A DNA stretch of 64,000 nt from Eubacteriales bacterium (lineage in GTDB: Bacteria > Bacillota > Clostridia > Oscillospirales > CAG-272): contig JBBAEK010000002.1 of NCBI GenBank assembly GCA_041655935.1, positions 5,548 through 69,547 of the forward strand, in the 5' to 3' direction. Shown here in pieces: positions 8,031-37,427 of the stretch. The notes under the pieces were generated by a model, which was not told where the DNA came from, made no database searches, and was given only the letters and a program-made list of their open reading frames with translations. A program made the translations under genes and the position numbers. Each line of letters starts with the position of its first letter. Position 1 is the first letter of the stretch.

Positions 8031-8214
8031 GGTATCCGACCGTCGCCCGACCGATTTGGCTCGTGTCCGCCCATGGCACACGGCATGCCCCCTCTGTGAG
8101 CCAAAACAGAGGGGGTTTGCGCATCCAATCAACCTTTGCCTGCCCAAACAGAACAGCCGGCTTGGTATCCGAGCGAGAAACATGCCCCAAGAACCATCCA
8201 CAAAGGAAGTGCTT

Positions 8215-8919
8215 ATGAACTTGTCCGAGTACCGTTTCAAAATAGAACTGCACGCCCACTCCGCTCCTGTCAGCCCCTGTGCCGACATGACCCCGGAGGC
8301 ATTGGTTGACATTTATCAACAATTAGGCTTTGATGCCCTCGTCCTCACCAACCACTTCAATGAGGAGGTGTTGGCAGCCTCCCCGGCAGGCATGAGCCGG
8401 GTGGACTATTATCTCAGTGATTACGACCGTGCCCGGCGTCGGGGTGCGGAGGTAGGGCTGTCCGTGTTATTAGGACTGGAGATTCGCTTTACGGAGAACC
8501 ATAACGACTACCTGGTATACGGGGTGACCGAAGGGGAGCTGCCCGTTGCCGCCGGGTATTTTGACAAGGGGTTGGCCGCCTTTTATCAAGGATTCAAAAA
8601 TGACCGCAACCTCATCCTGCAGGCGCACCCTTTCCGCTCCGGGATGCAGCTGGCCGATCCCGCCTGCTTAGACGGCATAGAAACCTTCAATATGCACCCC
8701 GGCCACAACTCGCGGGTGGCAGTCGCCGCTCGCTATGCCGCGGCACAGGGATGCCTGGCGGTGGGCGGGTCGGATGCCCATTTGCCTGCCCACGCGGGCG
8801 GCGCGGCCCTGCGCACCAAGACCCTGCCCGCCACCTCCGACGAGCTGGCCGCCCTGCTTAAAAGCCGGGACTACCTCTTTGACATTGGCGGTAGCCTGGT
8901 GCTGCCTTACGGCATCTGA
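8215..8919 (+). CDS. PHP domain metal-dependent phosphoesterase
   Basis: IELHAHSAPVSPCA ... LTNHFN ... QAHPFR ... GGSDAH motifs. ATG 8215 follows AAAGGAAG; track ORF starts at 8056 in the same frame. Confidence 0.75.
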   Translation: MNLSEYRFKIELHAHSAPVSPCADMTPEALVDIYQQLGFDALVLTNHFNEEVLAASPAGMSRVDYYLSDYDRARRRGAEVGLSVLLGLEIRFTENHNDYLVYGVTEGELPVAAGYFDKGLAAFYQGFKNDRNLILQAHPFRSGMQLADPACLDGIETFNMHPGHNSRVAVAARYAAAQGCLAVGGSDAHLPAHAGGAALRTKTLPATSDELAALLKSRDYLFDIGGSLVLPYGI

Positions 8920-15941: not shown

Positions 15942-15950
15942 TAAGAAAAT

Positions 15951-16171
15951 GATAGAGGCGCACCTCGTAAAGAGTAAAGACGTGCATAAACCCCGCAGGG
16001 TCTTGCGTTTTTGAAAGGTACGGGTGCCGAAGACAACCAATGCGTACGGTTGATCTGGCAACACAGAGAACATCTGTTTTGCTGTCGCACGATTTGCGGA
16101 GAGCTATCTTTACAGGGCGGGCAGCCTTTTGCCGGCCGGTGTATGGATAGCCGTCAGACGGCTATTTTTTT
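15951..16171 (+). promoter_or_regulatory. lysine riboswitch (L-box) with intrinsic terminator expression platform
   Basis: All L-box landmarks are present: AGAGGCGC (15954-15961), AGTA, GAAAGG, GGTGCCGAAG, CTGTC, GGAGAGCTATCT (16098-16109). P1 pairs GATAG with CTATC. Terminator is ATAGCCG-TCAGA-CGGCTAT plus T8 (16146-16171). GCTATC of P1 can alternatively pair with GATAGC of the terminator. Confidence 0.9.
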
Positions 16172-21076: not shown

Positions 21077-21152
21077 GCTCCTGTAGCTCAGAAGGTAGAG
21101 CATTTGACTTTTAATCAAAGGGTCCGGAGTTCGAATCTCCGCAGGTGCACCA
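21077..21152 (+). tRNA. tRNA-Lys (anticodon UUU), CCA encoded
   Basis: Hand-folded cloverleaf: D arm GCTC/GAGC, anticodon stem TTTGA/TCAAA with loop CTTTTAA, T arm CGGAG-TTCGAAT-CTCCG, discriminator A, CCA. The acceptor stem has one U3:U70 mismatch. Confidence 0.9.
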
Positions 21153-21558: not shown

Positions 21559-22119
21559 CTATATTTTATTTTCTGAATCAGGGTTGGCTTGTTTCAGCTC
21601 GTCCAATATCTTTTGCAGGGGTGCCAAGCGAGGGTCAGGTGCTTCCTTGCAGTCACAGCTACCCTCATTCAGGTCCTGCCCGCACTGCTGGCAAAGCCCA
21701 CGGCAATCCTCGGCGCACAGCAGACGGGAGGGAAACTCCATCTCCAGCAGCTCCAGCAACAGCTCGTCTATGTCTAAAAAGCCGTCCCGGATCTCCACAT
21801 ACTCGTCCAGTTTGTCCTCGTTGATCCCATCCAGCACCTTGGTAGGGGCGGCGGTTTTCTCGAGCTCAAGGTGAAAGGTACCGTCAATGTCCCGTAGACA
21901 TCGTGCGCAGGGCGCGATATACGGCACCCAGAGCGAGAGCTGCAGGCGTATATACCCGGCAGTGTTCACCACACTGCCCTGCACATGCATCGCCTGGGGG
22001 AAGCGAACGCCCCACAGATGGGGGACAGAGACAGACAGCTCGTCAGGAAGGGTGAGCTGAAAATCAATGGGCAAAGCGCGGATCTCTCCCGCCAGCAACG
22101 CCCGCAAATCTATCTTCAC
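21559..22119 (-). CDS. yceD: YceD/DUF177 family protein (large-subunit rRNA accumulation protein)
   Basis: Conserved position upstream of rpmF. C-terminal Cys-rich [26 protein letters not shown] start after GGGGAGG. Confidence 0.88.
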
Positions 22120-22188: not shown

Positions 22189-22217
22189 ATTATACACATA
22201 CTTTCTCCACTTGTCAA
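22189..22217 (-). promoter_or_regulatory. consensus promoter for yceD-rpmF (TTGACA-17-TATAAT, TGtG upstream)
   Basis: Minus strand reads CTTGACAAGTGGAGAAAGTATGTGTATAATGG. Confidence 0.65.
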
Positions 22218-22229
22218 GTACCGGCACTG

Positions 22230-22391
22230 AAAAAAGACAGAGCCCCCCAAGTAAATTCCACCGTGGAATTTACTTGGGGGATTTACTCAAGACAAACCAT
22301 CCCCATCGGATACCAGCCACCCGAAAAAGCAAGCCCATCAAACAAGCCGACGGCAAGCACCCGTGTGCAAATCCCCCAAAACCGGTTTCAT
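22230..22391 (-). ncRNA. candidate small RNA or very short leaderless ORF, minus strand
   Basis: Minus-strand promoter TTGCTT (22425..22420)-17-TATGTT (22402..22397). A 17-bp hairpin CCCCCAAGTAAATTCC../..GGAATTTACTTGGGGG (22280..22244) is followed after 8 nt by U6 (22235..22230). No family assigned. Confidence 0.3.
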
Positions 22392-22467
22392 GTGTTAACA
22401 TAGGGCATATTTTCAAGACAAGCAAAAAAGGCTTGCGAGAAAATCATCCTTGTGATAAACTTTGGGT

Positions 22468-22713
22468 GCTAAGCATCCGGCGGATTCGGAGACAGCCACC
22501 GACGGCACGGCGATAGTTGTCACAGCTCCCGCTACAACGCAACCAATTTGACCGACAATTATGCCAACGACTACCGGAAACGCAACCCTTAAGGGATGTC
22601 AGTCGGGTGTTCGCGCCTGTCCCACAGGGGCTACTGCGAAGGCATGGGGCCCCACGGGGACCGATCACAAGCGGCTTTCGGCATCTGTCTTGCCGAAAGC
22701 CGCTTCTTTTGTG
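22468..22713 (+). ncRNA. candidate structured small RNA (~245 nt), family unknown
   Basis: Promoter TTGCGA (22433-22438)-17-TGaTAAACT (22453-22461). 15-bp perfect terminator stem AAGCGGCTTTCGGCA/TGCCGAAAGCCGCTT (22669-22705) followed by CTTTTGTG. The body is GC-rich with several local helices (e.g. GGUG-UUCG-CGCC, CCUGU-CCC-ACAGG). The next gene has its own promoter. Confidence 0.45.
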
Positions 22714-22802
22714 CAGTCAAGGAGCGTGCAAAAAGGTGCTTTTGCAAAGTACCGGCGGCACGGAGGGGGCGCAGATTTGGGCAAGAAGATGACCGAGTTG
22801 AT

Positions 22803-22831
22803 TTGACAAGACGGCATTTCTGTTGTACAAT
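22803..22831 (+). promoter_or_regulatory. promoter for the hypothetical gene pair (TTGACA-17-TACAAT)
   Basis: TTGACA 22803-22808, TACAAT 22826-22831. Confidence 0.55.
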
Positions 22832-22860
22832 GGGAGTATCTTTTGATGTGAGGTTTGGGG

Positions 22861-23532
22861 ATGTCGGATTATCAATATGGGGACTATGATAAGTACGAAG
22901 GCGAAGAAGAGCGGGAAATCACCCCTTTCGGGCGGGTGGCGTCGATCGTGGCGAAGACGGCGGCGGCACTCATTGCGGTATTTGTCATTGGCACACTGGT
23001 GTTTCGCATGAGCTTTGGGGCCTACTATCCAAGGGCGATGAAGTCGCTGTACGAGACCCAGGCGCTGGCGCTCTACCGCCAAAGCGTGGGCGGGGAGCCG
23101 GAGGTCCTGACCCAGAAGATCCGGGTGCCCTATGAGGACGCCTCCAACGGGTACTTCATGGCGGACAACCTGATTGTGGTGCCCGAGGCGGGCAACCTGC
23201 AGTGCAGCATTCGCCTGAACAAAAGGGTGTATCGGCTCATGGCAGAAGCGTATGGCTGGGAAGAGATACCCAAGGCGGGGGCGGAGATCTTCACCTTTGT
23301 GCTCTATGACAACCACGGGCAGGCCTACCCGGCCGGCCATGTGCAGATGGAAACAAAACTTTACTACGTGTACTACAAGCTGGTCTTTGACGGAGTAGAC
23401 CTGTCAGAAGCTACCCAGTGGTGTCGGGTGAACATCCATATAGACGGGGTGACAGACACCGAGCAAGAGCCGGCGGCGGCGATTGCGGTCTATGAGAACA
23501 ACGACACCTACTCGTTTTTTGAACCTTATTGA
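22861..23532 (+). CDS. hypothetical single-pass membrane protein
   Basis: Acidic N-terminal tail (DYQYGDYDKYEGEEEREI), one TM helix (VASIVAKTAAALIAVFVIGTLVF), ~170-aa extracytoplasmic domain. ATG 22861 follows GAGG; the track start 22855 is a TTG. Confidence 0.6.
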   Translation: MSDYQYGDYDKYEGEEEREITPFGRVASIVAKTAAALIAVFVIGTLVFRMSFGAYYPRAMKSLYETQALALYRQSVGGEPEVLTQKIRVPYEDASNGYFMADNLIVVPEAGNLQCSIRLNKRVYRLMAEAYGWEEIPKAGAEIFTFVLYDNHGQAYPAGHVQMETKLYYVYYKLVFDGVDLSEATQWCRVNIHIDGVTDTEQEPAAAIAVYENNDTYSFFEPY

Positions 23533-37350: not shown

Positions 37351-37427
37351 TGGTGGGCCATCAGGGACTTGAACCCCGGACCAACCGGTTATGAGCCGGT
37401 AGCTCTAACCAACTGAGCTAATGGCCC
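37351..37427 (-). tRNA. tRNA with CAU anticodon, most like tRNA-Ile2 (lysidine type); elongator Met not excluded
   Basis: Revcomp reads GGGCCATTAGCTCAGTTGGTTAGAGCTACCGGCTCATAACCGGTTGGTCCGGGGTTCAAGTCCCTGATGGCCCACCA. Perfect 7-bp acceptor stem. Anticodon stem-loop CCGG-CTCATAA-CCGG resembles Firmicute Ile2. Confidence 0.88.

Follow-up and report, generated by a model that had tools for sequence, protein, structure and literature searches.

The region upstream of yceD in an uncultured Clostridia genome carries about 0.5 kb of extra sequence that is specific to one lineage and lies between two conserved promoters. Our reading of this island, held tentatively and with a little less than even confidence, is that it contains two independent, divergent, terminated and lineage-specific small transcription units. 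We infer the firing of their promoters, the ends of the transcripts and any regulatory function from the DNA itself. The plus-strand unit is the stronger of the two candidates, and its modelled properties would make it a reasonable stand-alone small RNA. The minus-strand unit is weaker, having a poorer promoter, no structure in its body and a less canonical U-tract. The features are collected in Table 1, where all positions are those of the window, that is, the whole 64-kb stretch of DNA that was analysed. The YceD encoded there is annotated 'MAG: Eubacteriales bacterium'.

The island is flanked on the left by yceD and rpmF and on the right by a gene for a membrane protein. With the yceD start at 22119 and that of the next CDS at 22855 (TTG) or 22861 (ATG), the gap is 735–741 nt, and the public assembly has no called gene within it. 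The initial annotation described this as the largest non-coding stretch of the window, and we find no longer gene-free stretch; a rival gap of 637 nt at 8031–8667 was rejected because most of it is covered by an ORF at 8056–8919. Each flanking gene has a promoter close to consensus, and the −35 hexamers of the two are 585 nt apart. The promoter earlier assigned to the downstream gene is recovered by the consensus scan and has an equivalent in syntenic relatives, so that the plus RNA is unlikely to be a mere leader of that gene.

Table 1. Features of the island upstream of yceD and of its flanks, in window coordinates.
Feature	Position	Strand	Description and basis
yceD (DUF177)	22119–21559	minus	with rpmF, left flank of the island
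yceD-rpmF promoter	22189–22217	minus	TTGACA-17-TATAAT; 12/12 to consensus; left island boundary; kept in relatives
Imperfect direct repeat	22211–22225 and 22742–22756		TTGTCAAGTACCGGC and TTGCAAAGTACCGGC; 13/15 identical; brackets the island; ~0.3 such pairs estimated by chance per 800 nt
Candidate small transcript	22230–22391	minus	~150–160 nt, G/U-rich; non-coding or with a tiny ORF; predicted promoter and terminator; fold z −3.2 with terminator
Terminator of minus RNA	22230–22281	minus	17–18-bp perfect hairpin (8 GC) at 22281–22243, then CUCUGUC and U6 (22235–22230); terminator scan
25-codon ORF, GTG start	22283–22360	minus	MLAVGLFDGLAFSGGWYPMGMVCLE; GGGGGA 10 nt upstream; stop just before the terminator; speculative
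Candidate sigma-A promoter of minus RNA	22397–22425	minus	TTGCTT (22425–22420), 17 nt, TATGTT (22402–22397); 7/12
Candidate sigma-A promoter of plus RNA	22433–22461	plus	TTGCGA (22433–22438), 17 nt, TG-a-TAAACT (TAAACT 22456–22461); 8/12, extended −10
Candidate small RNA	22468–22713	plus	~245 nt; predicted promoter and terminator; fold z −4.1 with terminator
UCCC motif	22527–22530	plus	predicted 4-nt hairpin loop on a 3-bp stem; unpaired probability 0.99 (single-sequence prediction); possible anti-Shine-Dalgarno seed
Intrinsic terminator of plus RNA	22669–22713	plus	15-bp perfect stem (9 GC), 22669–22683 / 22691–22705; 7-nt loop; tail CTTTTGTG / CUUUUGUG; terminator scan
Promoter of downstream gene	22803–22831	plus	TTGACA-17-TACAAT; 11/12; right island boundary; equivalent in syntenic relatives L057 and L031
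Downstream membrane-protein gene	22861–23532	plus	223 aa; no Pfam family on record; right flank

The open reading frames of the island have a flat base composition, with GC1/2/3 of ~0.5; in seven neighbouring genes GC3 is 0.68–0.82 and GC2 0.36–0.47, and in rpmF these values are 0.61 and 0.45. There are no meaningful Pfam matches in the island ORFs, and the sole tblastx match of the island, to the locus of a relative, passes through a stop codon. We therefore regard the island as non-coding, save for a theoretical peptide of at most 25 residues from the minus RNA, and on the evidence of GC3, Pfam and tblastx a hidden CDS or pseudogene is rejected. The earlier statement that neither transcript has a convincing ORF is thus upheld. 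The initial annotation also recognized no known RNA class and proposed a scan against Rfam, which has now been run with 6S, raiA, ROOL, Clostridiales-1, riboswitches, T-box, tmRNA, SRP and RNase P included; it gives no credible match. At the gathering score of Rfam 15 no family is found in the island. At E ≤ 10 the only entries are Srn266 (17 versus 63 bits) and isrA (13 versus 51 bits), neither of them credible; with nothing near the gathering threshold, membership in an Rfam 15 family is rejected. ARAGORN finds no tRNA or tmRNA in the island.

The most distinctive elements are two hairpins, both of which combine a stem-loop with a U-tract in the manner of an intrinsic terminator and pass the terminator scan. 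They point outward, each toward the promoter of a flanking gene, and no coding gene ends at either. The tail of the minus terminator ends 12 nt from the −35 hexamer of yceD, and that of the plus terminator 89 nt from the downstream −35 hexamer. On the plus strand the coordinates, perfect 15-bp stem and U-tract given at the outset are all verified. On the minus strand the hairpin and its placement upstream of the yceD promoter hold good, but the U-tract is less canonical than was implied. Here the two arms (22244–22261 and 22263–22280) are 18 nt long and 100% complementary; when folded they form 17 bp closed by a 3-nt loop, and the scan extends the hairpin to 22281–22243. The U6 run lies 7 nt past the main stem, or 4 nt past the extended stem, and it is the 7-nt spacing that makes this terminator the less canonical of the two. 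Perfect hairpins of 10 bp or more number only eight in the 64 kb, two of them in the island. Of the other six, four (20473, 25524, 37043 and 37319) coincide with the 3′ ends of genes or tRNAs, and those at 8088 and 54932 are unplaced. The perfection of the island stems (18/18 and 15/15) would speak against prolonged neutral decay.

Both units are proposed to start from the centre of the island, where the −35 hexamers of two divergent promoters are separated by 7 nt and the predicted starts fall at ~22468 for the plus RNA and ~22390–22391 for the minus RNA. These were initially called good sigma-A promoters. Their hexamers, spacers and −35 separation are exactly as described, but they are moderate in quality, falling short of the 9/12 required by the consensus scan, which reports only the promoters of the flanking genes. 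On a sigma-A weight matrix, an approximate one built for this analysis and used with a cut-off of at least 12 bits, the plus central promoter scores 13.7 bits and is the top plus-strand site inside the island, and the minus central promoter scores 12.2 bits. Three sites of at least 12 bits are found in the 585-nt island, compared with 0.35 ± 0.68 in 300 dinucleotide shuffles (P ~0.007); the background over the whole window is 0.4 per kb per strand. The distance from the best central site to the matching terminator is 245 nt on the plus strand and 150–160 nt on the minus strand. The third site (22295–22267, minus strand) lies within the minus hairpin and at 15.6 bits outscores both central promoters, so that promoter calls made on a single sequence are ambiguous.

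The predicted fold of the plus RNA comprises a long-range closing helix (~22472–22482 with 22600–22610), a multibranch core, a GC-rich hairpin at 22619–22662 and the terminator. The complete transcript folds better than shuffles (z = −4.1), but the signal of the body alone (22464–22664) is marginal at z = −1.9; the reverse complement gives z = +0.5. For both RNAs it is the terminators that supply most of the folding signal. One UCCC of the plus RNA is predicted to be exposed, and its two other C-rich motifs to be paired. The exposed loop is followed by a CA-rich, weakly paired stretch (22531–22590) in which ACGCAACC occurs twice; we estimate that ~0.5 repeats of such a length would be expected by chance. 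When the segment containing UCCC and the CA-rich stretch is used for target prediction, the initiation region of yceD ranks second of 49 genes with z ~ −2.2, through matches of 6–7 nt. This rank is too weak on such matches for yceD to be claimed as a target.

The body of the minus RNA, once its terminator is removed, gives no structural signal against shuffles (z = −0.9). Within this RNA a 16-nt segment (22379–22364) can pair with the 5′ arm of the terminator (22289–22274) at 88%, in the geometry expected of an antiterminator. Three small ORFs can be drawn on it. The 17-codon ORF begins with the ATG at 22391, the predicted start of the transcript, and would therefore be leaderless. The 22-codon ORF is not preceded by a Shine-Dalgarno sequence, and two arginines interrupt its hydrophobic stretch. 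The 25-codon GTG ORF is the only one with a Shine-Dalgarno-like sequence; its GC1/2/3 is 0.62/0.42/0.54, and it is too short to be judged on codon position. Hydrophobic peptides would be expected in any frame of an RNA so rich in G and U.

How far does the island extend among related bacteria? We fetched 80 related yceD loci by an alignment-based scan of genome contigs, a scan with the single protein having given nothing. Beyond the yceD promoter, searches with blastn, nhmmer, tblastx and a covariance model of the plus RNA reveal nothing resembling the island at any of these loci, and a search of the 64-kb window that included the same covariance model finds no second copy. The divergent gene pair itself is kept in 12 relatives, where the whole intergenic region is ~110–325 nt long and lacks the island; close inspection of L057 and L031 places their gene promoters ~70 nt apart. 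Within 800 nt upstream of yceD the 80 relatives have no perfect hairpin of at least 9 bp other than three that are A/T-rich, and none that is G+C-rich. Rfam returns only tRNAs from the yceD-upstream regions of the relatives. All other copies of the locus (in ENA, Logan and JGI) match that of the window over 20 kb with no more than one mismatch; in the 'second' member of the YceD cluster the sole difference is a V in place of M at the start codon, and a metagenome scan with YceD finds no further strains. Samples that contain the organism include ERZ27247346 and SRR8449813, and the assembly of the latter breaks at 22569–22661. The organism is isolated, the next-best YceD being only 59% identical. 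The initial annotation had offered lack of conservation in relatives as a reason to discard its own proposal, and formally that is the result, the island being absent from 80 of 80 loci including the 12 syntenic ones. However, since the nearest relative is so distant, the absence shows that the island is lineage-specific, and not that it lacks function.

The direct repeat that brackets the island is suggestive only. The ends of the island carry no terminal inverted repeats; the closest pairing between them is 16 nt at 75%. A blastn search of phage and plasmid collections with the island gives nothing relevant, DNA-pattern scans of viral contigs find no match to it, and a similar scan of metagenomes gives 16 matches, all of them by chance to the CA-rich repeat. 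With no terminal inverted repeats, a direct repeat of 13/15 and no second copy in the 64 kb or in the phage, plasmid and viral collections, we do not classify the island as a MITE or as the remnant of an insertion sequence.

The arrangement that we tentatively favour can be set out as follows. A lineage-specific non-coding island of ~510–585 nt would lie between two conserved, divergent gene promoters, and two units would fire outward from a common central promoter region. The plus unit (~22468–22713), with its extended −10 promoter, moderately structured body and textbook terminator, would generate a stand-alone small RNA. Its most likely mode of action, as a default guess, would be base pairing in trans with mRNAs, for which the UCCC loop and the CA-rich stretch at 22531–22590 are the candidate seed. 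The minus unit (~22391–22230) would be halted by its very stable hairpin before the yceD promoter, and yceD-rpmF would thereby be spared from read-in. The original proposal of two divergent, terminator-bounded small RNAs is thus sustained in part: the sequence is non-coding and belongs to no Rfam 15 family, the outward terminators are orphans and promoter-like sites are in excess, but the promoters are moderate and the folds of the bodies weak or no better than chance. Against the reading of two units stand the lack of conservation, promoters of 7–8/12, the existence of near-identical copies only, the z of −0.9 for the minus body and the weak target prediction.

The closest likeness is to the RsaA–K RNAs of Staphylococcus aureus. 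A screen for orphan terminators combined with promoters selected 36 intergenic regions in that species, leading to the characterization of 11 new RNAs, many with unpaired UCCC (PMC2790875). The default mechanism for small RNAs in Firmicutes is the pairing of exposed C-rich loops with translation-initiation regions (PMC2790875). Like the Rsa RNAs, the candidates are intergenic, with a predicted sigma-A-type promoter, a classical terminator, a length in the range of 100–300 nt and, in the plus RNA, a predicted unpaired UCCC (PMC2790875). Unlike them, the candidates are known from sequence alone, and the island has no similarity in sequence or structure to any Rsa or Rfam family. It offers a single exposed UCCC on a 3-bp stem and has no conservation at the level of the genus, whereas in the Rsa RNAs conservation is highest in the UCCC regions.

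Several other explanations compete with this reading. The island could be a neutral relic, either DNA inserted recently or what is left of decayed small genes or of a mobile element, in which hairpins and hexamers are fossils and any transcripts functionless. We consider this rather unlikely, although it accounts for the absence of the island from all 80 relatives, for the short intergenic regions (~110–325 nt) of the 12 syntenic ones and the ~70-nt promoter spacing in L057 and L031, and for the weak or absent structural signal in both RNA bodies. The imperfect 15-nt direct repeat that brackets the island would also fit, but such a repeat is within chance expectation (~0.3 per 800 nt). Moreover both hairpins are perfect and promoter-like sites are enriched over shuffles, and a relic should be reconciled with the lack of terminal inverted repeats, of a second copy in the 64 kb, of phage, plasmid or viral similarity and of any remnant of a CDS. 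A different view would make the minus unit a tiny protein gene (of 17, 25 or 22 codons), possibly a type I toxin partnered by the plus RNA. Known type I toxin-antitoxin systems with divergent transcription include tisB/istR-1, shoB/ohsC and zor/orz, and like these the island has two small divergent units, here predicted ones, in a gene-free setting, one of them with short hydrophobic ORFs. The predicted start falls on the ATG at 22391, and the 25-codon GTG ORF has GGGGGA 10 nt upstream and its stop just before the terminator. In contrast to the known pairs, there is no significant complementarity between the two RNAs, and neither a transmembrane segment nor a ribosome-binding site is convincing in the ORFs. 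In a crude full-length fold their duplex energy does not improve on shuffles (z = −0.6), and the RNAs share no inverted repeat better than 16 nt at 75%; on these two values a type I toxin-antitoxin system acting through RNA–RNA complementarity is not supported. Hydrophobicity is to be expected in G/U-rich RNA, the 22-residue peptide includes two arginines, there is no Pfam match and nothing else points to toxicity, and the tiny protein or toxin is on the whole improbable.

The hairpins might alternatively act as insulators, shielding the strong flanking promoters from stray transcription arising in inserted A/T-richer DNA, with no discrete functional RNA at all. Each terminator is indeed upstream of a flanking promoter, at 12 and 89 nt from the −35 hexamers. 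Yet the relatives cope with the same promoters and a far shorter region, having no perfect hairpin of at least 9 bp but the three A/T-rich ones, and we judge pure insulation to be very unlikely. It is in any case a sub-case of the two-unit reading, because insulation is needed only if the island has promoters. A role for the plus RNA as a riboswitch or attenuator, leading the downstream operon in cis from a distal second promoter, is also highly improbable. The RNA has the orientation of the downstream gene, and ~200 nt of structured body followed by a terminator is the layout of a riboswitch; a structured RNA that ends in a terminator upstream of a same-strand gene, together with the antiterminator geometry of the minus RNA, recalls attenuating leaders generally. 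Unlike in such leaders, however, a full-strength promoter stands between each terminator and the gene, there is no match to a known aptamer and the element is absent from orthologous loci. Specifically, the 148 nt from the end of the plus terminator to the start codon include a near-consensus promoter, the orthologous gene in syntenic relatives has no leader of this kind, no riboswitch or T-box model matches and the fold suggests no obvious alternative pairing of the antiterminator type. An extended form of our preferred reading goes further than the two units themselves, supposing a pair of new small RNA genes gained in one lineage, of which the plus RNA would be a structured class not yet described and possibly act on yceD-rpmF through complementarity to ACGCAACC. 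The initiation region of these ribosome-related genes has short complementarity to the repeated ACGCAACC segments. We give little credence to this larger proposal.

Lineage-specific orphan small RNA candidates are common. If both units are expressed, this deeply branching, uncultured lineage of Clostridia would have two regulatory RNAs that are missing from its annotation. They would also provide a clean case of the birth of small RNAs, in which the ancestral state of closely spaced promoters is still visible in relatives, a finding that would be useful if unsurprising.

A separate observation on the yceD-rpmF leader of the relatives may matter more than the island itself. In 56 of the 80 related genomes this leader contains a strongly conserved motif placed directly after the promoter. 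The motif has no Rfam match at E ≤ 10, nor is a leader of this kind recorded for yceD-rpmF in a published survey of ribosomal-protein leaders (PMC7247131). Nowhere in the window does the hairpin motif occur, and the window's own yceD-rpmF leader retains just the 5′ box TGTGCGACTTTG. In the relatives the motif reads TGTRCGAyTTTGGG, followed by a 5-bp hairpin with the loop CCUAAA, which is invariant save for one substitution, and then CCCAAA. One pair of the hairpin covaries: 33 sequences have A-U and 20 have G-C.

The 5′ leader of yceD-rpmF carries a motif that is conserved in 56 of the 80 related yceD loci (alignment A3 of their leaders). It consists of the sequence TGTRCGAyTTTGGG, a hairpin of 5 bp whose loop reads CCUAAA, and a final CCCAAA. 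The loop is invariant aside from a single substitution, and one pair of the hairpin covaries, being A-U in 33 sequences and G-C in 20. In the leader of the window the 5′ box TGTGCGACTTTG is the only part of the motif that is kept. The motif has no match in Rfam at E ≤ 10, and is not included in a published survey of ribosomal-protein leaders (PMC7247131). We regard it as a candidate new cis-regulatory leader, perhaps involved in feedback by L32 or YceD.

Coordinates of the leader motif and other sequence elements (window positions unless prefixed L061, one of the related loci)
Feature	Position	Strand	Remarks
Leader motif, example	L061:2918-3003		alignment A3
Leader motif, window counterpart	22182-22120	minus	
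Promoter-like site TTGTCT-17-TAAATT	22267-22295	minus	15.6 bits, weight matrix
Box, copy 1	22216-22229		immediately upstream of yceD -35 hexamer
Box, copy 2	22496-22510		within plus RNA, partly unpaired stretch
Box, copy 3	22747-22763		~40-55 nt upstream of -35 hexamer of downstream membrane-protein gene
Lysine riboswitch	15945-16114	plus	77 bits
tRNA gene	21077-21149	plus	
tRNA gene	37354-37427	minus	

A third promoter-like site lies within the terminator hairpin of the minus RNA, the candidate small RNA on the minus strand. If active, it would start transcription in the 3′ arm of the hairpin and provide a second, upstream promoter for yceD-rpmF. The same RNA also exhibits internal complementarity. 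Sixteen nucleotides near its 5′ end (22364-22379), overlapping the leaderless 17-codon ORF, are 88% complementary to 22274-22289, which comprises the 5′ arm of its own terminator together with the upstream flank. The geometry of this pairing matches that of an antiterminator, and we estimate the chance expectation for such complementarity at ~0.08 per region; the pairing is not used in the minimum-free-energy fold of the minus RNA.

A box resembling GTACCGGC(GGC)AC, which forms a near-palindrome when written as GTRCCGGYAC, has three copies in the window, a number that is within chance. It might represent an operator, or else a scar left by an insertion.

In Logan, SRR8449813 has been assembled independently, and that assembly is interrupted inside the plus RNA, the candidate on the opposite strand, with one contig (L002) ending at 22568 and the next (L084) starting at 22662. 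The gap (22569-22661) falls right in the 3′ domain of the candidate; micro-diversity among strains or low coverage there could account for it. Elsewhere in the window, the lysine riboswitch, located upstream of the dapA-dapB-ddh-lysA cluster, and the two tRNA genes are known, ordinary elements.
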